Positions 24,340 to 64,000 of a stretch of DNA of 64,000 bases are shown here, in pieces. The notes beneath the pieces were generated by a model. The model worked only from the letters and a program-made list of their open reading frames with translations, had not been told where the DNA came from and did not search any database. Position 1 is the first letter of the stretch, and every line of letters starts with the position of its first letter. The position numbers were made by a program, and so were the translations under genes. Source of the stretch: an uncultured Bacilli bacterium (GTDB lineage: Bacteria; Bacillota_I; Bacilli_A; RF39; UBA660); contig CAJUMA010000003.1 of the NCBI GenBank assembly GCA_910587065.1, positions 92,602-156,601 of the forward strand. The letters run 5' to 3'.

Positions 24340-24563
24340 TGGTTATAAAAAACAAGGAACAAGAGGAGTAAAATACTCTACATTATTAGGGATGAAAGAT
24401 CATTGACTGAAAGTCTTTCTTAATGAAAGTATTTGAAGGTAGCTTGGGAGTTGTTAATCTGAAATAATTAGTAAGATTAAACGAGTCACTCACGTTAAGA
24501 GTAAAGAGCACAAATTAAGGTGGTACCACGAGTCTTCGTCCTTTGGATGAGGACTCTTTTTGT
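24340..24563 (+). promoter_or_regulatory. T-box riboswitch leader, controlling the valS operon
   Basis: Canonical T-box sequence AAATTAAGGTGGTACCACGAG at 24512-24533. Followed by an 11-bp terminator (gagtcttcgtc/gatgaggactc) and TTTTT at 24530-24563. Stem I region carries an AGAGGAG-like element and a GUC triplet (aaagtctttc), a candidate Val specifier. Confidence 0.75.
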
Positions 24564-24578
24564 ATATTAGGAGGATTT

Positions 24579-25088
24579 ATGAATACAGTGGTTCAAGATA
24601 AAAATATAGCATTTGTAATTAATCAGGAAAATAAAATACTAGTATTTATTAGAGAAACAAGAGATTCGGTAATTATGTCTTTTCCCGAAATAATGGCGGA
24701 TAGTAAAATACCTTTTTTAAATGATGAACATTTAGAAGAATATGAATATATAAATTCGTATTCAAAAGAAAAAAATGATTGTAAAATTGTTAATGGTCAT
24801 TTAATCAAATTCCCAAAACGAGTGCGCAAACACTTTTATGCTTTAAGATATGATTTAATGCCAGAAGATATTGAAGAAATAATGAATTTAACTCATAAGA
24901 TAGGCGCGGAACCATACTTTCTTGATATTGAAGAGATTAAAGACCTTTTTACCAAAAATTATTACTTAAGTAATTCCATTGATACAGCAAATTTAATAGA
25001 AAAAAAACTAAAACCAATTTTAGAACTTGAAAAGAAAATGCAACCGTTGCTTGTACAAAAACAAAAGATTAGAAAGGAAAGATATTAA
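24579..25088 (+). CDS. hypothetical protein (169 aa), first gene of the T-box-controlled valS operon
   Basis: ATG 24579 with RBS TTAGGAGGA. The ORF-track start at 24543 falls inside the terminator stem and is rejected. Its stop overlaps the valS ATG by 1 nt. Confidence 0.55.
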   Translation: MNTVVQDKNIAFVINQENKILVFIRETRDSVIMSFPEIMADSKIPFLNDEHLEEYEYINSYSKEKNDCKIVNGHLIKFPKRVRKHFYALRYDLMPEDIEEIMNLTHKIGAEPYFLDIEEIKDLFTKNYYLSNSIDTANLIEKKLKPILELEKKMQPLLVQKQKIRKERY

Positions 25089-27607
25089 TGTTAGATACTA
25101 AATATGATAATAAAAAAATAGAAGAAGGAAAATACGAAAAGTGGAAAAATGCTGGTTACTTTAATTCAGGAGATAAAACGAAAAATCCTTATTGTATAGT
25201 GATACCACCTCCAAATGTAACAGGAAAACTTCACTTAGGTCATGCTTTAGATGTTTCAATCCAAGATATAATAATTCGTTATAAAAGATTACAAGGATTT
25301 GATTGTCTTTGGCTACCGGGAATGGATCATGCTGCTATTGCAACGGAAGCAAAAGTTGTAAAAAGATTAAAAGACCAAGGAATTGATAAATACGAATATG
25401 GAAGGGGAAAATTCTTAGAAGCTTGTTGGGATTGGACACGTGAATATGGTGGTAACATTAGAGAGCAATGGGCAAAAATGGGTATATCAGTTGATTATAA
25501 TAAAGAAAGATTTACTCTCGATGAAGGACTTAATAAAGCTGTAACAAAAGTTTTTGTTGATTATTATAATGAGGGAATAATATATCGTGGCGAAAGAATC
25601 ATAAATTGGGATCCCGAAGCCCAAACTGCTCTTTCTAATGAAGAAGTTATTTATAAGGATGTTGAAGGAGCTTTCTATCATTTAAAGTATTATATTGAGG
25701 GAACAAGTGAATATTTGGATGTTGCGACAACAAGGCCAGAGACTTTATTTGGTGATACTGCTGTTGCTGTTAATGAAAATGATGAAAGATATAAAAAGTA
25801 TATTGGTAAGAACGTAATATTACCAATTGTTAACAAACCAATCCCAATAATTGCTGATGAGCATGCGGATCCTGAATTTGGAACAGGTGTTGTTAAAATT
25901 ACACCAGCACATGATCCAAATGACTTTGAAGTAGGAAATAGACATAATTTAGAAAGAATAGTTGTCATGAAGCCTGATGCTACAATGAACGCTAATGCAT
26001 TAAAATATGAAGGTATGAGTCGTGAAGAATGTAGGGAAGCTTTACTTGAAGATTTAAAACATGAAGATTTGCTTATAAATATTGAACCAATGACACATTC
26101 CGTAGGTCACTCAGAACGTACAGGTGTTATGGTTGAGCCATACTTATCAAAACAATGGTTTGTTCGCATGGGGACTTTAGCTAAAAGAGTATTAGAGACC
26201 CAAAAGATAAGTGCTGAAAAAGTAAATTTTGTACCAGACAAGTTTGAAAAAACTTTAACCCATTGGATGGAAGAATGCTTTGATTGGTGTATCTCTCGTC
26301 AATTATGGTGGGGACATAGAATTCCTGCTTGGTATAAGGGTGAAGAAGTTTATGTAGGGGAGAGTGCTCCAACTGGTGATGGCTGGGTACAAGATGAGGA
26401 TGTTTTAGATACATGGTTCTCAAGTGCACTTTGGCCTTTTAGTACACTTGGTTGGCCTGAGTCTACAGAAGACATGGAAAGATACTATCCAAACGATTGC
26501 TTAGTTACTGCTTATGATATTATTTTCTTTTGGGTTGCTAGAATGGTTTTCCAAGCAGAACATATCACTGGTTCGCGTCCTTTTAAAGACTGTGTAATTC
26601 ATGGACTTATTCGTGATAAGCAAGGAAGAAAAATGTCTAAGTCTCTTGGTAACGGTGTAGATCCAATGGATATGATTGAAAAATATGGGGTAGATGCCTT
26701 AAGATACTATCTAGCAACTGATGTGGCACCTGGAACAGATCTTCGTTTTGATGAAGAAAAACTTTCTAGTACTTGGAATTATATAAATAAAATTTGGAAT
26801 GCCTCTCGCTTTGTTTTACTAAATATTGAAGACTTAAATGAAGCTCGACTAGAAGACTTAAGCGATGAAGATAAATGGATACTAACTAAATATGAACGTG
26901 TAATAAAATCTACAATTAAACATATGGATAAATACGAATTTAATTTAGTAGGTACTGAAACATACAATTTTATCTATGATGATTTTTGTAGTAACTATAT
27001 TGAATTTGCTAAATATAACTTAGATAAGCAGTCTACTAAATCAACACTATTTTGGGTGCTATCTGGAATAATCCAAATATTACATCCATTCATGCCATTT
27101 GTAACAGAAGAAATTTATCAAATGTTACCAATTAAAACGCATGATTCCATAATGATAAGTGATTATCCAATTTATGATAAGTCTTTAATGTTTGAAGCAG
27201 AAGAAAAATTAGTCGATGAAAAAATTGAATTCATAAAAAATTTCCGTAATGTCAAATCTGAAAACAGTATTCCAAAAGATGCATTAGTTAAAATAAATAC
27301 AGAGGATGAAATAATTATCAAAATGTTAAAATTATCAGATGTATTAACAGAAGAAGATTTAAGTATTAATTCTTATGAAGTTAAAACACAAAAATATCAA
27401 GCAACAATTTATTTTGAAAAACAAGTAACGGAAGAAGAGTTAAAGTTAAAAGAAAAACAAATAAATGACTTAGAATCATCAATTGAAAGAAGAAAAAAAC
27501 TTTTAGCTAATGAAAATTATGTTGCTAAGGCACCAGCGGAGTTAGTTGAAAAAGAAAGAAAAACTTTAGAATCCGAAGAAGAGCAATTAGCTCTTTTAAA
27601 GAAATAA
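25088..27607 (+). CDS. valS: valine--tRNA ligase
   Basis: Class I HIGH region (PPPNVTGKLHLGHA). KMSKS present as KMSKSLGN. Editing and anticodon-binding regions. C-terminal coiled coil typical of ValS. Confidence 0.9.
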   Translation: MLDTKYDNKKIEEGKYEKWKNAGYFNSGDKTKNPYCIVIPPPNVTGKLHLGHALDVSIQDIIIRYKRLQGFDCLWLPGMDHAAIATEAKVVKRLKDQGIDKYEYGRGKFLEACWDWTREYGGNIREQWAKMGISVDYNKERFTLDEGLNKAVTKVFVDYYNEGIIYRGERIINWDPEAQTALSNEEVIYKDVEGAFYHLKYYIEGTSEYLDVATTRPETLFGDTAVAVNENDERYKKYIGKNVILPIVNKPIPIIADEHADPEFGTGVVKITPAHDPNDFEVGNRHNLERIVVMKPDATMNANALKYEGMSREECREALLEDLKHEDLLINIEPMTHSVGHSERTGVMVEPYLSKQWFVRMGTLAKRVLETQKISAEKVNFVPDKFEKTLTHWMEECFDWCISRQLWWGHRIPAWYKGEEVYVGESAPTGDGWVQDEDVLDTWFSSALWPFSTLGWPESTEDMERYYPNDCLVTAYDIIFFWVARMVFQAEHITGSRPFKDCVIHGLIRDKQGRKMSKSLGNGVDPMDMIEKYGVDALRYYLATDVAPGTDLRFDEEKLSSTWNYINKIWNASRFVLLNIEDLNEARLEDLSDEDKWILTKYERVIKSTIKHMDKYEFNLVGTETYNFIYDDFCSNYIEFAKYNLDKQSTKSTLFWVLSGIIQILHPFMPFVTEEIYQMLPIKTHDSIMISDYPIYDKSLMFEAEEKLVDEKIEFIKNFRNVKSENSIPKDALVKINTEDEIIIKMLKLSDVLTEEDLSINSYEVKTQKYQATIYFEKQVTEEELKLKEKQINDLESSIERRKKLLANENYVAKAPAELVEKERKTLESEEEQLALLKK

Positions 27608-54378: not shown

Positions 54379-55014
54379 TTATTCCTTAATATGAAGTGAG
54401 TTTATAATTTTTAACATCTCAACTTGTATTTTTGTGTTTTCCAAAGTTTCTTTTGCATCATAATTAACTATTAATAAATAATAATTATTTAGAACGCTAA
54501 ATATAAATTGATTCGTATTATCTTGAGAATAAGTAAAAGTATTAATATTACCCAATTTCTCTTCATTTTTAAAATCACTATTTATATAAGCTTCATATTC
54601 ACTTGCTAATATTGTTTTAAATTCAATGCTATAAGCATTGTTGCTTTTATAGAATATTGTACTTTTTGAGGCACCAAAAGTTTTAGAAGGATAGTTAACG
54701 ATAACTTTATCAAATAAAAATTCTTTTGCTAAATCTTCTTTTTCTTCCATTGTATTTTCTAGAGGTTGTTTATTTGATTTTTTATAATCATTTACTACAT
54801 AAAAAACTATAAAACCAGTAATTAATACAATTAATAATAAAGCGAAAATATATTTTATTCTTTTTTTGTCTTCTTTTGCCTTTACTATTTTAGGATTAAG
54901 TATAATTTCTTTTGTTTCCTCTAAAACATTTTCAACTTGTGAATTATCGTATCCACAAGACTCACAAATAACATCGTTGTCTGGAATTAATGTATGGCAT
55001 TTTTTACAATACAT
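54379..55014 (-). CDS. zinc-ribbon membrane protein of unknown function
   Basis: N-terminal C..C-x14-C..C zinc ribbon (MYCKKCHTLIPDNDVICESCG), one TM, and an extracytoplasmic domain. ATG 55014 with RBS GAGGTGA. Confidence 0.5.
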   Translation of the reverse strand: MYCKKCHTLIPDNDVICESCGYDNSQVENVLEETKEIILNPKIVKAKEDKKRIKYIFALLLIVLITGFIVFYVVNDYKKSNKQPLENTMEEKEDLAKEFLFDKVIVNYPSKTFGASKSTIFYKSNNAYSIEFKTILASEYEAYINSDFKNEEKLGNINTFTYSQDNTNQFIFSVLNNYYLLIVNYDAKETLENTKIQVEMLKIINSLHIKE

Positions 55015-55185
55015 TCGTATCACCTCAGTATCTTATATAATTATAACAATGATTTAAAAAAAATAGCAACAAAATATTATGAAATATTTTTTTTGCTTTT
55101 GGGAATAATATAGAAGAAAATTAGTTTATGAAGTATTTACATAAAAACTTGATAATGCTATAATTTAATCATAGGATGTGGATAT

Positions 55186-58100
55186 ATGAAGAAGTCTAAA
55201 TATGCATTATTATCTATTATATCTTTATTTATTGTAATCTTGGGAGTAGTTGGGATTAGTATTCTATTTTCTATGTCTAAAAACGACACTAAACATTTAG
55301 AAGTACGTAATAATTCTAAATTTGAAGAGGCAACTACAACAGAAGCGCCAAAACTTTGTGAACCAAATACAGGTGTTTATTACACTGTAAATGCAGGTGG
55401 AGCAATCATTTATGATAAGGCAAATGATACTGCAAACAATGTTGGCTCTTATTCAGCGGGAACGAAGGTAACTGTTTTTTGTACTGAAAATGGACGTGGA
55501 AGAGTAAACAAAAACAGTAATGAATATGTTAAATTATCTGACTTAACTGAACTAAGTGTATCGGTAACTCCAACTTTAACTCACCCAAATTATGACTATC
55601 TTTTTAGAAACGAGAACTTTGTTTTAAATTTAATTCTTTCTGCACCAAATATACCAGATGATGGAGCAGCTAGACTAACATTTGATATAAAGAAGAATGG
55701 AGTAGATGTCAGTAGCCAATTTAATATTTCGAGAGGAACTCTTTCTAATGGTTCTCAAACTATAACAATTACTAATTCTACTGCTCAAGAAGGAACATAC
55801 ACTATTACACCTTATGTCGATGGGCATCCTAAAACTACTGAAGATTTTATTGTTGAAAAGAATAAATTGATTTTTGACATAAATGCGCCTTCATCTTCTC
55901 CTACAGAGATTCATGAAAATGAAAGAGGAACATGGACTTCATCACTTTCATCTAATAGAATTCCATCAACTTTAACATTTGATGATTTCAATATTGAAAT
56001 TAAAAAGAATGGCGTTGATTGTAAAAGTAAATTTGAAGTTACAACAAATGGTGCAAACATAACGATAACAAATAAAGAGAGAAAAATAGTCTATAAGGAC
56101 GGTCAATGGAAAGATGACACTAGTGATTATGCATCTGCAGGTACTTATACGATAACAATCACGATTAAGGATATGAATACCTACTCAACTGTCTATGGAT
56201 CTAGTAAAAGTAAGAATTTTGAAATATTACCTAAAAAGACTGAAATAACTGAAGATTCAGCTAACAGAAGTAGGGGACGTTACAACATAAAGATTACAAA
56301 GCCTTCGTATAATTTACAAATAGTTGGAACAATTACTCATAATGGCTTAACAAAATATGTTTTAAATGAAAAGAAAAATGGAGCTGCTGCCACAGAATTT
56401 AGCCTATATGCTTATTCAGAAGCGGAATTACTCGAAATATACCCAAGACTAAGTCTTAAAGATATCTATTTTTTTGATAGGATTACAGTTTCAAAACCAG
56501 GAATAAAAGATAAAGATGGCAATGCTACTAATGTATCAGCTGTTCATCCTGTAGCAATCAACTACCAAGACAGCGTTATTATAGTAAAATATATTAATAC
56601 AGGAACAGCAGAAGAGAAAAAAATAACATTTTATGAAGGTTTTTCTAATACTGAAAAAGTAATGACTGAAGCCAATTTTAAAAATGAATATAAAAGTGCT
56701 TTTAATGCTTTAACAGTCAAAAAACCTGCAGGTAAAAGTTTTGAAAAAGATACGGGAAATATTTTCTTTGCTAGAACAGTTGCCAAAGTAAAAAAAGAAA
56801 TCACCACCGATATGGAACTTGAACCATTGGCTAACACTGGAGGTGAAGTTACTTATAAAATAAATTTTTCCGGATTTTTACAAAATGAATTAAATAATTT
56901 TTATACTTCCTTAACTGATAGTGATGGTAAAATTATGGTTGGAAGAGATTCTAACGGTAACATGGTTCAAAGTGATGGAAATTTTGAACTTATAACTGAC
57001 AGATCTGCAATAGAAAGTGGACAATTTGCTGTGACACTTAAATATATAGGTAAGGACAATAAATATGAGGGTGATTATACTGTAAAATTTTGGATTGGAA
57101 ATACAGTGTATACTACAGAATTCACTTTAGGAAGCGGTCCTGAAGATTACATAATATTTAGTGAATTAGACCGAGATGAACTTTCTGGAAATCCATTAAA
57201 AGGAAATAATCCGCCATCTAATCAAAAGTACGAATATAAAATTGGTATGTATTTAAAAAAATCAAAACAAGATTCTTATGATGTTGACCTTTCAAAAATT
57301 GACTACAAAGTATATGATAAAAGAATAGGAATCTATTCTGGAAATGACTCTAATACAAGGTATTACTTTTATGATGAAGAGGAATACATAACAAAGATAA
57401 ATAAATTATTGAATGGCTATGTTTATTTTGAATTGTGGGATGAAGCAGGAAATGTAATTAAGAAAGAACAGGCTATGTCAGAATCCAACTTTGCAGCTAC
57501 CTATAGCGAAGCCGCTGAATGTCTAAATGACTTGGTTTTTGATAAGACAACGGGGTTGCTTACAGGCGATGCAATTCAAAATAATACTGGAAGTGCCGCA
57601 GTGGGAATGCATCCTGTAAGAATAATAGATAACAATGTATCAGATGAGGATGAAGAAAATAATTCTGGTGATGAAAATAATTCTGGTGATGAAGATGATA
57701 CTGGAACTAAAGAAGATGGGCAAATTGTTTATAAGAATAATAGGAATGTGATAAAAACAGAGTATTTTAGTGAGGCCTTCAAAACTAAGAATGAAAATCA
57801 AAAAGCTTTTTCTCGAAAAGTTCAATCGCGTTTTGTATTCATAGATACGGATCCAGATACTGAAGGTCGTGAATATCAATTAGGGGCATTAAAGGGAATG
57901 CGTCAAATTAATATTGACAATAAAAATGGACAAGGCTACACTTTAGCAGATATTCAAAGCCATGATAAAACTGATAGTTTTTATATAAGAACAGCAGAAA
58001 GATTATATACAGACGATAATTATACAGGTGAATATATACCAACAGAAAAAGATATAGAAAACGAACAAAAAGAGATTGCTAAAAGTACTTTAACTGTTAG

Positions 58101-61100
58101 GCCTCGATCAGAAGTAGTACCAGGGGAATATTATATTTATGTTATACATGGTAAGACATCAGCTATTGGTTATTCTTATACAGAAGTTTTTGGAGCAAAA
58201 GATCCAATAACAAAGAAACCAGTTGAGTACCCAATCGAACTTGCTTTAAATCCAGAAGCGTATAATCGAAATATACATATGACATCATTTCAATATACAT
58301 CTCCAGTTTATAGCATGAGTATTAATCCTCCAGAGGAGTCAAATACCAAAAATGATTTAAAACTTGCTTATGCAAACGTTGATAGTACAATTTCATTTGA
58401 TGTAACTTTGAACTACATTTATGATAAAACTGGACTAACTTACACAATTGAATACTATAATGGAACAACTTGGGAAGATGTAACAAAATCAAATTATTTT
58501 GGTATTAATAATGCCATACTACCAACTGAAGCTCTTGATAATTCGGGAAGTAACTTTGAAACAAAGGGATTAGTTCCATCTAAATTTGATCTTAGAACCG
58601 TTCCTGGAACAACAAAGATTGGTAGATATCGAATAAAATTTGATTACTCAAATAATGGTGTTTCTATGCCTACAACAGAACAAGAGTTCACAATTAAAGC
58701 TAATTACTATGATATTAATATTATTCCAACAGAAGTGCAAAAAGTTACGAGTGAGGGAAGAAAACCATTTGACCTTATTTATACAACCCAACATACAACT
58801 ACTGAAATACCAATTAACTTAAGTTATGTTACTAATCCTGATGCTTTGGAATTTGAATTAAAGTATGTTCCATCTGGAACAGTCAATCCTTGGCAACCAA
58901 GTAATAGCCAATTTAATAGTTATGCTGATGCAAATACTGTTATATTTAAATATACAAAGCAAATAACTCCTGTTTCAGGAAGTAATCATGAATCAGTATA
59001 TTTGTTAAGTTTAATTAATGCAGATGGAGAAACTTTAACAAAACCACCTGAGGGTGAATATGTTTTAAAGGTGCGATACCGAGAGCAGTATGCAGACGGA
59101 GTAGATGACGAAGGAAATCCGTTATATAAATACAATGCTGAAGCTACTACAAGTTATACATTTACAGTTTCTGAACCGGAAAAATATTTTACTGTTGTAG
59201 GGAAGTCCGAAAAAGCTGTTGCTCGTCAAAATGAGATGTACTATACTCAAAGCATTATTTCTAATTATGTTAATGGATTAATACTTAAAGGTAAAACTAT
59301 TTCTTATGCAATTGAAATGCATGAACCTGGTGGAGATTCATATGAAAATGTTTCATCAAATTCTTCTCGTTTAAAACTATTTGATATAAACATGCAATGG
59401 GATGTTGATGATGTAATTGATCGTATAAACTACACAGGAAATTTAAAAGTAAACTTGAATGTTGATAAAATTGATAAAATTTTTGAAGTTAATGATTCAC
59501 CTATAGGTCAATTCCTCTTTATAATAAACATTGATCAAGAACGATTTGAAATAAACATGCCTAATTTACGCAATTTATTTGAGTGGAATATTGAAAATTT
59601 TGATATTAGTGCAACTTTAGATAATAATGGTGAGACTATTAATGTTAAGGAATATTACTCCAATACTAATCCAACGATAACTGTAGATTTAAAAACCATA
59701 CATGAAGAAAATGCTAAATACGCTATTACTAATGTGTGTACGTCAGAAGAAACTTGTTCACCTAGTGAAGATATGATTAACTTTAATGATCGATTTGATT
59801 TAGTTTCAATTGCGGCAGACAAAATTGTTGTAAAACAAAAAACTAATTTAAGTGAAGAGACTAGATTACCAAAAGGAAAATATCAATTTGTTGCTTATTA
59901 TTCTAAAGAGGATTATGATGTTCACGAGTTTATTGTCAGGGATGAATATGCTGAAATAAGCATAGGTAATATAAATATTGAAACTCCTTTAAAGGATGAG
60001 GTTTCAAACCAATTATTTGTTAATAAAAATTCTAAGATAACAATTCCTGTTACTGTTATTGGGGTACCTTATGAAAATGTTACAGTGGATTTTACAAATG
60101 CTGATCAAACAGAAAATTATAATCATTTATTCCCATATGACAGAAATAAATTTTTAACTGATCATGTTATTGAGTTGAATTATGACCACAATAACTCAAT
60201 TCCTGCTCAAGACTATATGGTTATTATTCATAAGGTTGTTAATGAAGAATTGATTGAAGACCATAAAACTTTAAAATTTAATGACTCTTATTTCAATTAC
60301 ATAATATCAAATGTTACTTATAATCCAAATCCCGCCGTACCAAATTATGATAATGGGGGAGAAATTATTTTTGATATAACAACTGATGAATGGATGACAG
60401 GTTCAGCTCTTGACGATAGTGAAGCAAAACAAAACTTTGTAGACAGTTTAAAAATATATCATGCTGATAAAGAAGAAGATTTAAGTAGTAAATTTGAAAT
60501 AACTTATAAAAATACATCTAGTATAACAGATTTTAAAGTTGTTTTAAGATATTCCAAAGAAAAGGAAATATTGCCAGGTGACTATCGTGCTGAATTTAGT
60601 GCTGCTAAAGGTAAATTTATTCTAGCAAAATCGAAAAACTTTATAGTTGGTGATTATGAAAGAAAATTAACTATAACAGGTGTCTCATTAGAATCAGAAA
60701 CTCCAGATGGATTAATTCACAAGAATACTGGAGGATCTTATATAGTAAGCTATACAAGCAACTATGAAATAGATACAAATAACTTATTTATTAAAGTTAC
60801 AAATCAAGAAAAGCAAGATGTTACAAATAAGTTTACGTTTGAAAAGAACGAAGAAGGCAAAGTTAAAGTTAAATTTGACCCAAATATCCATACAATTGAC
60901 TATGGCAAATATATAATTACTTTAACTTATGCTGATCCTGTAACGCATGGCAATAATGTTAATACAACTGAAGTTATTATGTATGGTGATTATAAAAACA
61001 TCATTATTAAAGATATAAGAAGTAATGTAACACCAATACTAGCAGAAAATGAAAATCAATATTATGAATTTACATTAGACATCTCCAATCTGACAGAAGA

Positions 61101-62355
61101 TGAAAAAAATCTTGCCAAAATACGTATTTACGATGCCGAGAATAATATTGTGGCTTCAACTATAAATTCTGATAAGGTAGAAAATGCTTTTGATGTAATA
61201 AAAGTGGGAACTGATAAATACAATATTAATATCTTGCCATATAAGGCTAGAGTTGGCAGCTATTATGCTGAAATAATTATACCTGCTTCTTATGATCCAA
61301 ATAATGAAGGACTTCAAAATATTTCAAACAGACTAGCATTCACTGTCGATGATACACTTTATGAAGTCAATTTAAAAGCATCATCATATCTAACAACAGC
61401 AGAAAAAATTAATGGAACTTTTGATATTTATGATTATATAGGAGTAACTGGTTCTTATGATTTTGCATCAAACTCCCCATATAAGGATGAATATTCTATT
61501 AAGGTTTTTAATAAGCTTAAGTTAGTTAAAGAAATTAGTGTAGAAGCAGGTTTGAAAAACGGTTATGATAACCTTGCGTTTACTGTAGATGAAATCAGTA
61601 ATGGTTATGTTGAAGTAGCGTTATGTATAAAGGGCTTACCGTATGCATCAATTACAAAAAATGTTTTAGAGTATATTAAAATAACTGAATTTGCTGTTAT
61701 TTTAGATAATCGCGATGTTGGTGATGAATTAATCTTAAATCAAGGAGACAAAAAGACTTTTGAACTATTTATAAGACCAGAAAATGCTACTAATAAGAAT
61801 CTTGTATTTGAATCAAGCGATGAAGATGTTGCAACATTTAAAGGTAACACAATAACAGTTATTGATACTGGTTCGGCAGAAATAACTGTAAAAAATAAAG
61901 AAGTAAGTAAAACATTTACTTTAAATATTTCTGAACTTGTTCAATCAGATGTTTATGAAGTAGATCAAGATGAAAGGACTATTTTTGTAAGTTCACTTAA
62001 TAAAAAGATAATGTCAAAAGAAGAATTTATTGGTAATTTATTATATCTAAGAGATGATTATAGAATATTAGATGGTTCTAATCACGATGTTACGGATACA
62101 ACTAATGTTGTTGGAACTGGCTATAAAATAGTCAGTGGAAATATAACTTATACAGCTATCGTAATTGGCGATGTAAATGGAAGCGGAACTATTGACTTAG
62201 GTGATGCAACAAGTACATTTAGATGCTATCGAAATTATACTAAGTTAACAGGAGTCTACTTAAAAGCCGCAACACTTTCAAGAGGAAACAATGTTCAACT
62301 TGGTGATGCAACTAAATTATTTAGATTCTATCGTGGGTACGTAAATGAAATTTAG
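55186..62355 (+). CDS. giant (2389 aa) secreted or surface protein with C-terminal Big_2 (bacterial Ig-like) domain and dockerin-like module
   Basis: N-terminal signal/anchor (LLSIISLFIVILGVVGISILF). Long beta-rich body. Big_2-like segment near residue 2130 (ILDNRDVGDELILNQGDKKTF...TVIDTGSAEITVKNK). C-terminal dockerin-type duplicated Ca-binding loops (GDVNGSGTIDLGDATSTFRCY... / LGDATKLFRFYRGY). Confidence 0.7.
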   Translation: MKKSKYALLSIISLFIVILGVVGISILFSMSKNDTKHLEVRNNSKFEEATTTEAPKLCEPNTGVYYTVNAGGAIIYDKANDTANNVGSYSAGTKVTVFCTENGRGRVNKNSNEYVKLSDLTELSVSVTPTLTHPNYDYLFRNENFVLNLILSAPNIPDDGAARLTFDIKKNGVDVSSQFNISRGTLSNGSQTITITNSTAQEGTYTITPYVDGHPKTTEDFIVEKNKLIFDINAPSSSPTEIHENERGTWTSSLSSNRIPSTLTFDDFNIEIKKNGVDCKSKFEVTTNGANITITNKERKIVYKDGQWKDDTSDYASAGTYTITITIKDMNTYSTVYGSSKSKNFEILPKKTEITEDSANRSRGRYNIKITKPSYNLQIVGTITHNGLTKYVLNEKKNGAAATEFSLYAYSEAELLEIYPRLSLKDIYFFDRITVSKPGIKDKDGNATNVSAVHPVAINYQDSVIIVKYINTGTAEEKKITFYEGFSNTEKVMTEANFKNEYKSAFNALTVKKPAGKSFEKDTGNIFFARTVAKVKKEITTDMELEPLANTGGEVTYKINFSGFLQNELNNFYTSLTDSDGKIMVGRDSNGNMVQSDGNFELITDRSAIESGQFAVTLKYIGKDNKYEGDYTVKFWIGNTVYTTEFTLGSGPEDYIIFSELDRDELSGNPLKGNNPPSNQKYEYKIGMYLKKSKQDSYDVDLSKIDYKVYDKRIGIYSGNDSNTRYYFYDEEEYITKINKLLNGYVYFELWDEAGNVIKKEQAMSESNFAATYSEAAECLNDLVFDKTTGLLTGDAIQNNTGSAAVGMHPVRIIDNNVSDEDEENNSGDENNSGDEDDTGTKEDGQIVYKNNRNVIKTEYFSEAFKTKNENQKAFSRKVQSRFVFIDTDPDTEGREYQLGALKGMRQINIDNKNGQGYTLADIQSHDKTDSFYIRTAERLYTDDNYTGEYIPTEKDIENEQKEIAKSTLTVRPRSEVVPGEYYIYVIHGKTSAIGYSYTEVFGAKDPITKKPVEYPIELALNPEAYNRNIHMTSFQYTSPVYSMSINPPEESNTKNDLKLAYANVDSTISFDVTLNYIYDKTGLTYTIEYYNGTTWEDVTKSNYFGINNAILPTEALDNSGSNFETKGLVPSKFDLRTVPGTTKIGRYRIKFDYSNNGVSMPTTEQEFTIKANYYDINIIPTEVQKVTSEGRKPFDLIYTTQHTTTEIPINLSYVTNPDALEFELKYVPSGTVNPWQPSNSQFNSYADANTVIFKYTKQITPVSGSNHESVYLLSLINADGETLTKPPEGEYVLKVRYREQYADGVDDEGNPLYKYNAEATTSYTFTVSEPEKYFTVVGKSEKAVARQNEMYYTQSIISNYVNGLILKGKTISYAIEMHEPGGDSYENVSSNSSRLKLFDINMQWDVDDVIDRINYTGNLKVNLNVDKIDKIFEVNDSPIGQFLFIINIDQERFEINMPNLRNLFEWNIENFDISATLDNNGETINVKEYYSNTNPTITVDLKTIHEENAKYAITNVCTSEETCSPSEDMINFNDRFDLVSIAADKIVVKQKTNLSEETRLPKGKYQFVAYYSKEDYDVHEFIVRDEYAEISIGNINIETPLKDEVSNQLFVNKNSKITIPVTVIGVPYENVTVDFTNADQTENYNHLFPYDRNKFLTDHVIELNYDHNNSIPAQDYMVIIHKVVNEELIEDHKTLKFNDSYFNYIISNVTYNPNPAVPNYDNGGEIIFDITTDEWMTGSALDDSEAKQNFVDSLKIYHADKEEDLSSKFEITYKNTSSITDFKVVLRYSKEKEILPGDYRAEFSAAKGKFILAKSKNFIVGDYERKLTITGVSLESETPDGLIHKNTGGSYIVSYTSNYEIDTNNLFIKVTNQEKQDVTNKFTFEKNEEGKVKVKFDPNIHTIDYGKYIITLTYADPVTHGNNVNTTEVIMYGDYKNIIIKDIRSNVTPILAENENQYYEFTLDISNLTEDEKNLAKIRIYDAENNIVASTINSDKVENAFDVIKVGTDKYNINILPYKARVGSYYAEIIIPASYDPNNEGLQNISNRLAFTVDDTLYEVNLKASSYLTTAEKINGTFDIYDYIGVTGSYDFASNSPYKDEYSIKVFNKLKLVKEISVEAGLKNGYDNLAFTVDEISNGYVEVALCIKGLPYASITKNVLEYIKITEFAVILDNRDVGDELILNQGDKKTFELFIRPENATNKNLVFESSDEDVATFKGNTITVIDTGSAEITVKNKEVSKTFTLNISELVQSDVYEVDQDERTIFVSSLNKKIMSKEEFIGNLLYLRDDYRILDGSNHDVTDTTNVVGTGYKIVSGNITYTAIVIGDVNGSGTIDLGDATSTFRCYRNYTKLTGVYLKAATLSRGNNVQLGDATKLFRFYRGYVNEI
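57655..57690 (+). repeat. perfect 18-nt tandem duplication (gaaaataattctggtgat x2) encoding ENNSGD x2 in an acidic linker of the giant protein
   Basis: Direct reading of the sequence: 57655-57672 is identical to 57673-57690. Confidence 0.8.
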
Positions 62356-62842
62356 ATATTTTATATTATTAATATTAATACTTATTCCATCATCTGTTTC
62401 AGCTAAAGAAGCAATTGAAATAGAATGTAAAAAGGAAAAAAATATATATGAGTGTAAGGTAAGTGGAAATGTTAGTTATGAAGTTAGCGCTATTGATTTT
62501 CACTTCTCCTTACCAAAATATGCAAATGTGAAAAGTTATAAATTGGATTCGAGATGGGAAGGCTCTGCTGATGATAACTGGGTATCTTTATACTCTGAAA
62601 TTGATTCAAAAGATATTTTTCCTTTACTGACTTTACAAATAGAATCGAAAAAAAGTATAAAAGAATCGGATTTTAAAATAACTGATTTAATTATCTATGA
62701 TAAAGAATTTAAAGAGCATAAAGTTAACGAAAAAAATGTAGACAATAATAAAAAAAAGATACTTATTAGTATAATATGTGTTATCCTTATTATAGGAACA
62801 ATAGCAATAATATGTATAAAAAAGAAAGGGAAATCAAAATGA
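62345..62842 (+). CDS. small membrane-anchored protein with cohesin-like domain
   Basis: Signal peptide. Beta-rich ~120-aa domain (IDFHFSLPKYANVKSY...ITDLIIYDKEFKEH) resembling cohesin. C-terminal TM and KKKGKSK tail. Overlaps the 3' end of the dockerin protein gene. Confidence 0.4.
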   Translation: MKFRYFILLILILIPSSVSAKEAIEIECKKEKNIYECKVSGNVSYEVSAIDFHFSLPKYANVKSYKLDSRWEGSADDNWVSLYSEIDSKDIFPLLTLQIESKKSIKESDFKITDLIIYDKEFKEHKVNEKNVDNNKKKILISIICVILIIGTIAIICIKKKGKSK

Positions 62843-64000
62843 AGAAAATAAACATTATCATTCTTGGAATTTTTCTACTCATTATTTCTCCTAAAAACGT
62901 TGATGCTGCTGCATTAGGCATAACGATAAAATGTTCAAATGTTACAGCAGGACAAAATACGAGTTGTACAATAACAGGAAGTTCAGCAGAAGAAATTACA
63001 GGCTTTGATGCAAACATAGGCGTTAATGGAGCCACTGTTACAAGTATAAAGGCTGGTAATGGATGGGCATCAATGGGAGGATCAAACAACTATGTCGCTT
63101 ATTATGCCGAAGGTGCTGGAAAAGTTGGAACATTTACTATTGCTACAGTAAATTTAAGTACTTCTATGGCTGGAACAGGTACGATTAGTCTCTCTAATAT
63201 CCATTTTAATGATTCTGGTGGAGCAACTTTCTCAGGAAGCAATAAAAATTCTTCATTTTCAATTACACCTGCTGCAACCCAAGCTCCTCCAACAACTACA
63301 GTAAGACCAACCAAACCTCCAACAACTAAACTACCACCAGCTACAACAATAGCTCCAGCAACTGAACCAGTTGCAACAGCTCTTAAACTTGATAGTTTAA
63401 AAGTTGGAGACTTTGAAGTCTTAGAGCAAGAAGGAAAATATTATGTAACTGTTAATTATGATACAGAAAATGTTAATGTTGAAGCTTTTGCAAATCCAAA
63501 TTTAACTATTATTGGTGGAGGAGTAAGAACTTTAGCAGTTGGTAAAAATGTTGTCGAATTAATTTTACGAAATGAAATTAATCAATCATCTACTGTTCAA
63601 GTAATAATAACAAGACCAGAAGATACTAACGATTATAGTACATATCTTACTGAACTAAAGTTAGTAGATTATGACTTTAAATTTAATAAAGATATTTTAG
63701 AATATACAGTTTATATACCGTCCACTGTTAAAGAAGTATACGTTATTGCTAAAAGTGACAATGTTGATGTTTCCATAATGGGAGATGGATTACGTTCACT
63801 TGAAAAAGGTAATAATGAAATATATGTTAAGGTTCAGTATGGAGATAAGGCAGAAACAAATTATGTAATCCATGTTAAAAGAAGTTATTCTTCAATAATA
63901 ATGTGGGGTGTAATAGCGTTATTATCAGGTGGCTTGATAGGTACAATTGTCTACTTTAGTATGAAACTGAAAAAAGCCAACGTAACTGTAAAAGAAGAGA
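62839..64000 (+). CDS. cohesin-domain protein with cadherin-like beta-sandwich domain and C-terminal TM anchor (3' end beyond window)
   Basis: This ORF is missing from the ORF track because it has no stop inside the window. Signal peptide MKKINIIILGIFLLIISPKNVDA. Cohesin-like block ITGFDANIGVNGATVTSIKAGNGW...GTFTIATVNLSTSMAGTGTISLSNI. Pro/Thr linker. Cadherin-like sandwich (LKLDSLKVGDFEV...YTVYIPSTVKEVYVIAKSDNVDVSIMG). TM IIMWGVIALLSGGLIGTIVYF. Confidence 0.6.
   Translation, partial: MKKINIIILGIFLLIISPKNVDAAALGITIKCSNVTAGQNTSCTITGSSAEEITGFDANIGVNGATVTSIKAGNGWASMGGSNNYVAYYAEGAGKVGTFTIATVNLSTSMAGTGTISLSNIHFNDSGGATFSGSNKNSSFSITPAATQAPPTTTVRPTKPPTTKLPPATTIAPATEPVATALKLDSLKVGDFEVLEQEGKYYVTVNYDTENVNVEAFANPNLTIIGGGVRTLAVGKNVVELILRNEINQSSTVQVIITRPEDTNDYSTYLTELKLVDYDFKFNKDILEYTVYIPSTVKEVYVIAKSDNVDVSIMGDGLRSLEKGNNEIYVKVQYGDKAETNYVIHVKRSYSSIIMWGVIALLSGGLIGTIVYFSMKLKKANVTVKEE

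Follow-up and report, generated by a model that had tools for sequence, protein, structure and literature searches.

The three genes at the 3' end of the 64-kb stretch of DNA from an uncultured Bacilli bacterium that we analysed (hereafter the window) are likely to form a conserved chromosomal operon for the non-cellulosomal, cohesin-dockerin-based display of a giant adhesin or fibre in an uncultured, low-GC, Erysipelotrichales-like gut member of the Bacilli. All three open reading frames (ORFs) are on the + strand: the giant gene (55186..62355), encoding 2389 amino acids (aa); ORF2 (62345..62842), encoding 165 aa and overlapping the giant gene by 11 nucleotides (nt); and ORF3 (62839..64000), which is cut by the end of the window and shares four nucleotides, ATGA, between its own start and the stop of ORF2. 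An earlier reading made from the sequence alone (the sequence-only reading) had proposed a giant dockerin-bearing protein followed by two membrane-anchored cohesin-domain proteins, and the ORFs, the sequences quoted from them and the overlap at position 62345 were found as it had described them. The system is real, conserved, and so far unannotated, having been missed by standard annotation. Those of its components that carry names in the source databases are called "hypothetical" or merely "cadherin-like", and none of the papers listed in our literature searches describes a system of this kind from Erysipelotrichia or from uncultured Bacilli related to them.

The giant protein ends in a segment (62167..62352, + strand, residues 2328-2389) whose duplication can be read directly, GDVNGSGTIDLGDATSTFRCYRN ... 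TLSRGNNVQLGDATKLFRFYRG, and which had been called dockerin-like. When the last 251 residues were compared on their own with the PDB, the matches to dockerins were marginal, with an expectation value (E) of 0.1 for the Clostridium thermocellum XynY dockerin and of 0.23 for the type II dockerin of CipA. When the last 140 residues were searched by HMMER against 1.84 billion representatives, 511 proteins were returned at E<=1e-3, of which about 20 are giants of 1.8-2.5 thousand residues, and the more distant of the 511 carry textbook duplicated DVNGDGKVNxxD segments. The 30 closest C-termini, each matching the query in the library at E<=6.4e-11, were aligned (alignment A4), and the resulting profile covered both repeats of the XynY dockerin (2ccl_B) with E 5e-10; about 35 further dockerin chains of solved structure were matched at E<=0.02. 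Furthermore, 25 of the 30 relatives individually matched the Pfam family Dockerin_1 (PF00404), with a best E of 1.4e-11. Because the A4 profile matches solved dockerins and most of the closest relatives match Dockerin_1, the segment is assigned, at the level of profiles, to the type I dockerins as a divergent member, which bears out the identity that had been proposed for it.

The two repeats of this dockerin, which follow the type I pattern of tandem loop-plus-helix segments of ~22 residues, differ in their predicted calcium-binding loops. In repeat 1 the loop is intact (D-x-N-x-S-x-x-x-D-x-x-D), with D2329, N2331, S2333, D2337, and D2340 at positions 1, 3, 5, 9, and 12, and the aspartates at positions 1 and 12 are invariant in 20 giants. 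In repeat 2 the corresponding loop is degenerate (T-x-S-x-G-x-x-x-Q-x-x-D; T2363, S2365, G2367, Q2371, and D2374) and departs from the ligand pattern. Most relatives have x-[IV]-R-K at positions 1-4 of this loop, and only the aspartate at position 12 is invariant. The duplicated segment is present as had been proposed, with the degenerate second calcium loop as a correction. The two dockerin helices, on the other hand, are nearly identical (LGDATxxFRxYR; LGDATSTFRCYR and LGDATKLFRFYR in the window). Among 31 giants, the identity between helix 1 and helix 2 was 0.66 within a protein compared with 0.37 across proteins, whereas the identity of the same helix between proteins was 0.38 and 0.50; in 10,000 permutations, the within-protein value that was observed was never attained (p<1e-4). 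The two helices therefore co-evolve within each protein, i.e., they undergo concerted evolution. In type I dockerins, such a pattern is associated with internal symmetry and a dual binding mode. It is expected if both repeats track one partner, and it implies a co-evolving protein partner. Because the two recognition helices are nearly identical, the dockerin can probably bind in either of two orientations or engage either cohesin.

The larger of the two candidate cohesin proteins is the product of ORF3. Its full-length form was found in public metagenomes as a protein of 516 aa as called (P0001), which is 100% identical over the part encoded in the window, and position 62839 is taken as the real start because all other members of the family begin with MKK; the family has 37 close members. 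The protein consists, in order, of a signal peptide (residues 1-23), a domain of ~120 residues with an invariant pair of cysteines (62908..63285, + strand, residues 24-149, with strands in residues 27-143), a Pro/Thr linker, two beta domains, a transmembrane helix (63895..63963, + strand, residues 353-375), and, after the residues KLKK, a conserved cytoplasmic tail of ~140 aa. The second beta domain (63649..63882, + strand, residues 271-348) is the cadherin-like beta-sandwich that had been noticed earlier; it matches Cadherin-like (PF12733) with 28.2 bits against a cut-off of 24.2, and with 26.9 bits when the full-length protein is searched against the same threshold. The beta domain preceding it (63382-63624, + strand, residues ~182-262) has weak internal similarity to the Cadherin-like domain (E 4e-4). 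The tail (P0001 residues ~385-516) lies mostly beyond the window and has no family match; its short conserved motifs in the family alignment (A1) are EKNKILAEANRxVA, NGQSVV, PTNPVxVATS, QVKVVKT, and VINTGK.

It is the N-terminal domain of ORF3 that connects this protein to the cohesins. An AlphaFold2 model of residues 24-149, built from an alignment of 24 sequences, had a predicted local distance difference test score (pLDDT) of 96 and a predicted template modelling score (pTM) of 0.87. When this model was compared with the PDB by Foldseek, each of the 18 highest-ranking matches was a cohesin (E 3e-6 to 5e-5, template modelling scores 0.68-0.78), the closest structures being non-cellulosomal cohesins of the Clostridium perfringens glycoside hydrolases GH33 and GH84C and of Archaeoglobus fulgidus. 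The predicted structure has the features of the cohesin fold, namely a nine-stranded beta-sandwich (jelly-roll) within ~120-150 residues. Membership of the ORF3 domain in the cohesin family is thus supported at the level of the predicted fold, whereas a single-sequence search of the PDB with ORF3 gave no match.

The product of ORF2 is a smaller protein that has no Pfam match and no PDB match by single-sequence search. It consists of a signal peptide (residues 1-20), a cohesin-like domain with two cysteines (residues ~23-128), a short basic stalk, a transmembrane helix (residues 139-158), and the tail KKKGKSK. Seven close relatives were found by word-index search. Alignment of its ectodomain with the ORF3 domain family by hhalign gave a probability of 95.4% and E 1.7e-8 over 105 columns that include the cysteine pair, and a hidden Markov model of the ORF3 family found ORF2 by hmmsearch at E 2e-8. 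At the level of profiles, the ORF2 ectodomain is therefore homologous to the cohesin-fold domain of ORF3, and it is through this homology that ORF2 would share the cohesin fold. The two cohesin-like domains of the sequence-only reading were in this way corroborated, and so were the signal peptides, which are canonical in both proteins (SVSA|K in ORF2 and VDA|A in ORF3). The C-terminal transmembrane anchor with a basic tail, which it had ascribed to both proteins, is present in ORF2; in ORF3, however, the transmembrane helix is followed by the ~140 cytoplasmic residues described above. The predicted topology, as judged from the signal peptides and transmembrane helices, places the dockerin and both cohesin modules outside the cell.

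In order to compare the arrangement among genomes, contigs carrying ORF3 relatives were scanned with three profiles (A2 and A3 for the cohesins and A4 for the dockerin) in loci of 21 kb each, in which the identity of the relatives to ORF3 of the window reached down to ~37%. A dockerin-ending giant gene followed by a large cohesin gene on the same strand was found in 13 distinct loci, and in 12 of these a small cohesin gene lies between the two, that of one locus (L016) being truncated. The gene junctions overlap or nearly abut, and exactly one dockerin and at most two cohesins occur in each 21-kb locus and in the 64-kb window. The conservation of the gene order in 13 distinct loci indicates that the three-gene arrangement is not due to chance, and the strict linkage of the cohesin genes to the dockerin gene suggests that the cohesins bind this dockerin. 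Judging from the record titles, the carriers of the loci are metagenome-assembled genomes (MAGs) of uncultured Bacilli or Erysipelotrichales, including "Firmicutes bacterium CAG:582", and the isolate names point to samples from mouse (MGBC) and from the gut of Hadza humans, with one further locus from a wolf sample. Three locus-bearing MAG records (L006, L007, and L012) are titled "uncultured Muribaculaceae"; because the locus is otherwise found only in records of Bacilli, Erysipelotrichales, or Firmicutes, these are probably mis-binned or mislabelled.

The giant protein itself appears to be a long, non-catalytic chain. Whole-protein word-index search returned four proteins, and the giant family came from exhaustive search of the library; about 20 full-length relatives of 1821-2457 aa align with the window giant from end to end. 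From the N-terminus, the order is a hydrophobic segment, an SH3-like region, a long beta-rich body, a Big_2 domain, an X-like module, and the dockerin. The hydrophobic segment (55201..55269, + strand, residues 6-28) comprises 23 residues and has no canonical A-x-A site, unlike the signal peptides of ORF2 and ORF3. In the relatives the stretch often ends in V-V-A, V-V-S, or G-M-A, and it may be a Sec signal peptide or else a signal anchor that is not cleaved. The SH3b-like region (55357..55545, + strand, residues ~58-120) is flanked by two conserved cysteines; it gives a weak match to SH3b_T in the window giant (E 0.066), and 7 of 20 family members match SH3_3 with a best E of 2e-10. Farther along, three copies of an 18-nt tandem repeat (57651..57704, + strand) encode an acidic NSGDE(N/D) linker. 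The near-identical giant allele of locus L001 is 6 aa shorter (2383 versus 2389 aa), and since the missing residues fall within this repeat, its length varies between strains. The body shows a recurring pattern of G-x-Y followed by a beta strand, with Ig-like Pfam matches (WxLIP_HBD, Wzt_C, MG2, and FlgD_ig) scattered across the relatives. The stretch of residues 641-1000 (window 57106-58185) is well conserved, has the least Ig-like appearance, and contains three helix-containing repeats of the form F-x-x-x-Y-x-x-A-x-x-x-L; its model is mixed alpha/beta with medium confidence (pLDDT 73.7), and this stretch could be a new domain.

Toward the C-terminus, the Big_2 Ig-like domain expected in front of the dockerin was found at residues 2181-2243 (61726..61914, + strand; PF02368, E 1.9e-5, with 25 bits where 22.8 are required) and is present in 10 of 20 relatives. 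Directly before the dockerin is an X-like module of ~78 aa (61933..62166, + strand, residues 2250-2327), which is co-conserved with it, many of the 511 library matches spanning both. The family profile of this module found no relative in the PDB or Pfam, and we have not adopted its designation as an X module in the type II or type III sense. No catalytic Pfam domain was found in the window giant or in 19 relatives, whose matches were confined to SH3_3, Big_2, and scattered Ig-like families, in agreement with the earlier statement that glycoside-hydrolase motifs are lacking in the body. The additional suggestion of an S-layer-like protein gained no specific support: Pfam detected no S-layer homology (SLH) or S-layer domain in the proteins, there is no sign of lattice formation, and that suggestion was dropped.

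The mechanism that we propose builds on what the analysis shows, namely the domain identities, the homology between the cohesin domains, a symmetric dockerin, and a conserved order of the genes. The giant would be exported via Sec as a non-enzymatic chain of beta-sandwich domains, and the X-like module and dockerin at its C-terminus would dock non-covalently on the cohesins of two co-transcribed, single-pass membrane proteins. ORF3, fixed by its transmembrane helix and carrying the conserved cytoplasmic tail, would hold its cohesin off the membrane on the Pro/Thr linker and two cadherin-like domains, a stalk that may be long enough to cross the wall, while ORF2 would present a minimal cohesin directly at the membrane. 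With one calcium loop and symmetric helices, the dockerin could engage its partner in either orientation, or either partner. The outcome would be a giant adhesin or surface fibre that is tethered without sortase or SLH domains.

Several results weigh against this explanation. Among the domains for which a Pfam scan had been suggested, Big_2 and Cadherin-like were detected, but Dockerin_1 and Cohesin were absent from all three proteins, and an NCBIfam scan of the three gave nothing significant, with no dockerin or cohesin. Taken by itself, this outcome would nominally refute the sequence-only reading by the condition that it had set; the more sensitive comparisons support both assignments, and we regard the direct scans as false negatives for divergent modules. 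For the window giant, Dockerin_1 gave no match even at E<=1. The Pfam family Cohesin (PF00963) was matched at E<=1 neither by the window proteins nor by 24 family members, and the profile of the ORF3-domain family found no cohesin among the PDB sequences, so that the cohesin assignment draws on the predicted fold together with the gene context. The degeneracy of the second calcium loop is family-wide, and the biophysics of the module may therefore differ from that of canonical dockerins. One Erysipelotrichales MAG (L003/L009) has no small cohesin, and covariation between the small and large cohesins was not significant (identity 0.228 within loci versus 0.213 across loci, p=0.07). As for the giant, the geometry would be different if its N-terminal segment were an anchor that stays uncleaved, as it may be; Foldseek comparison of the model of residues 641-1000 with the PDB gave no match below E 0.1; and the absence of enzyme domains is what suggests the role of an adhesin. 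Finally, we infer rather than observe the binding of the dockerin by the cohesins, and an adhesive function of the giant is likewise presumed from its sequence.

The proposed mechanism has to be weighed against other explanations of the same genes. It is possible, although we favour it considerably less, that the two cohesin proteins are general surface sockets and that the giant is one client among other dockerin proteins, including enzymes, so that the whole would be a minimal cellulosome- or amylosome-like system. This would agree with the occurrence of the same X-like-plus-dockerin subfamily in the 511 library proteins, some of which combine GH5 cellulase and DUF285 domains, while others have BspA-type leucine-rich repeats or a beta-helix of the pectate-lyase-like kind; DUF285 is a family that Pfam names after Mycoplasma proteins. 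For instance, the X-like module and dockerin are found near the N-terminus (~residues 30-160) or at the C-terminus of P0067, P0074, P0080, P0077, P0085, and P0090, and cohesins of this type may have additional clients in these proteins. However, the 511 proteins are not assignable to the genome of the window, only one dockerin occurs in the window and in each locus, neither cohesin protein has more than one cohesin or any carbohydrate-binding module (CBM), and their linkage with the giant gene is strictly one-to-one, which speaks for a dedicated pair. A socket function of this kind would extend the explanation preferred here rather than exclude it.

An unlikely arrangement is one in which an N-terminal helix that escapes cleavage keeps the giant in the membrane of its own cell, while its distal dockerin engages the stalked cohesins of a neighbouring cell, resulting in homotypic adhesion or aggregation, or those of the same cell, resulting in a closed arch. 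The long stalk of the large cohesin would suit such contacts, and the 23-residue hydrophobic stretch of the giant lacks the A-x-A site that is present in ORF2 and ORF3, yet several relatives end this stretch in V-V-A, V-V-S, or G-M-A, which are acceptable signal-peptidase sites, and there was no sign of aggregation. We consider it most doubtful that the cohesin-like domains are plain beta-sandwich spacers that do not bind the dockerin, with the dockerin-like segment acting as a calcium-binding stabiliser or as a binder of an unlinked partner, and with the linkage of the genes resulting from another shared function; the silence of the Cohesin models noted above would fit spacers, and the placing of cohesins at the top of the structural matches and the concerted evolution of the dockerin helices would fit a cohesin-dockerin pair.

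A further, improbable elaboration of the preferred display mechanism is that the two cohesin proteins act as a two-tier relay that couples the surface to the cell interior, from ORF2 to ORF3 and on to the cytoplasmic tail. The mini-cohesin of ORF2 would catch the symmetric, single-calcium dockerin at the membrane as the C-terminus of the giant leaves the Sec channel. The dockerin would then pass to the stalked, wall-spanning cohesin of ORF3, or be bound by both at once, and the conserved 140-residue tail of ORF3 would couple the giant fibre to intracellular machinery; in several species the locus adjoins mraY-ftsW. If such a relay existed, cohesin and dockerin would form a link comparable to those of integrin or cadherin type, and Gram-positive cells would have a third means, besides sortase and SLH domains, of retaining very large proteins at their surface.

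Cellulosomes are the best-known setting of cohesin-dockerin pairing, and non-cellulosomal pairs are already known in principle. One anchoring pair that works similarly to the giant and its cohesin proteins is CttA-ScaE of Ruminococcus flavefaciens, in which a non-catalytic adhesion protein bearing an X-dockerin is docked on a single-cohesin cell-surface anchor, ScaE, that is covalently attached to the wall by sortase. In contrast, both cohesin proteins described here are integral membrane proteins, one of them with a cytoplasmic tail of 140 aa, the client is a protein of ~2,400 aa with no recognised CBM, and the X-like module has no detectable relation to known X modules. The exotoxin GH33/GH84 pairs of C. 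perfringens (PDB 2vo8, 2w1n, 2jh2, and 2o4e) also work similarly and are non-cellulosomal, but there the modules join one secreted glycoside hydrolase to another, whereas here a membrane anchor is paired with a giant non-catalytic protein, and the sequence identity is 12-14%. The non-cellulosomal cohesin of A. fulgidus (PDB 2xdh) comes from a different domain of life, and, compared with the autonomous (stand-alone) cohesin of R. flavefaciens (PDB 4n2o), ORF2 is membrane-anchored and has no dockerin of its own. OlpA, OlpC, and SdbA of C. thermocellum (PDB 3ul4, 4dh2, and 2bm3) resemble ORF2 and ORF3 in being anchoring proteins with a single cohesin. It has been reported that cellulosomal anchoring proteins such as OlpA/OlpC/SdbA are generally bound to the wall by SLH domains (PMC5817068). 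In contrast, ORF2 and ORF3 have neither an SLH domain, as judged by Pfam, nor a sortase LPXTG motif in their sequences, and the anchoring role would fall to the transmembrane helix. The locus has one cohesin per protein, no CBM, no catalytic client, and one dockerin in 64 kb, unlike cellulosomes or amylosomes, in which scaffoldins with several cohesins and a CBM gather carbohydrate-active enzymes that bear dockerins, and the earlier view that the system is not a cellulosome is a reasonable one. Also in the wider catalogue of non-cellulosomal cohesin and dockerin modules, we know of no comparable operon with a giant client.

The surroundings of the three genes suggest how they may be expressed. 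A promoter-like site, TTTACA-17-TGcTATAAT (55136..55164, + strand), which is a consensus match only, lies 22 nt 5' of the giant gene and had the highest consensus score on the + strand (11/12, with an extended -10 element) within positions 1500-14000 of L001. A putative ribosome-binding site, AGGA (~55173, + strand), was read from the sequence between this site and the giant gene. Downstream of ORF3, just past the end of the window, there are two more conserved genes on the same strand (L001 11651-13083; also in L003, L004, and L005), neither of which has a Pfam match. The first encodes a polytopic membrane protein, generally of ~190 aa (192 aa in L001 and 110 aa in L003; absent in L005), and the second a protein of 247-280 aa (280 aa in L001) with a cytoplasmic N-terminus, a transmembrane helix, a Thr-rich linker, and an outside domain. 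In the consensus scan of L001, no terminator-like site was found on the + strand from the giant gene until past the fifth gene, and the next strong promoter-like match comes directly after the two extra membrane-protein genes. These two genes may belong to the same operon; the consensus sites and the gene overlaps are consistent with co-transcription of all five genes and with the translational coupling that had been suggested.

On the other side of the giant gene, a divergent gene (54379..55023, - strand) encodes a protein of 214 aa that has a zinc ribbon at its N-terminus (a sub-threshold match to Pfam Zn_Ribbon_1, E 6e-5), one transmembrane helix, and an outside domain. Genes encoding 203-211 aa are found in equal position and orientation in L001, L004, and L005, with the same architecture in the products of L001 and L004. 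This is a conserved neighbour whose membership in the system is uncertain; it could be a regulator or an accessory factor. Housekeeping genes surround the locus (encoding a ClpB-like ATPase, MraY, FtsW, and adenosine deaminase), with MraY and/or FtsW just upstream of the cluster in four loci (the window, L001, L003, and L004), and the G+C content is ~29% across the whole window without a shift in composition at the locus. An origin from a mobile element or phage was rejected on the basis of these housekeeping neighbours, the uniform composition, and the adjoining mraY and/or ftsW in the four loci. Elsewhere in the window, a T-box leader (24346-24546, + strand; Rfam RF00230, scoring 105.9 bits with a gathering score of 93) is located upstream of the ORFs at 24543-25088 and 25088-27607, and no tRNA genes were found in the window.

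In this lineage of uncultured Bacilli from the gut, the cohesin-dockerin module would be dedicated to tethering a giant surface protein that is apparently non-catalytic. What sets it apart is a cohesin family that is invisible by sequence and a symmetric dockerin with a single calcium site. Because the cohesin domains are invisible to current sequence models, cohesin surveys based on Pfam would miss the whole family, and the profiles A2, A3, and A4 could be used for re-scanning gut metagenomes. In its predicted architecture, the system differs from SLH and sortase anchors in having a transmembrane helix that is followed by a conserved cytoplasmic tail, and two cohesins that are held at different distances from the membrane. 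If the binding is confirmed, the components would provide a small orthogonal cohesin-dockerin pair for protein display, and the giant would be a candidate adhesin that possibly determines how these uncultured bacteria attach in the gut.

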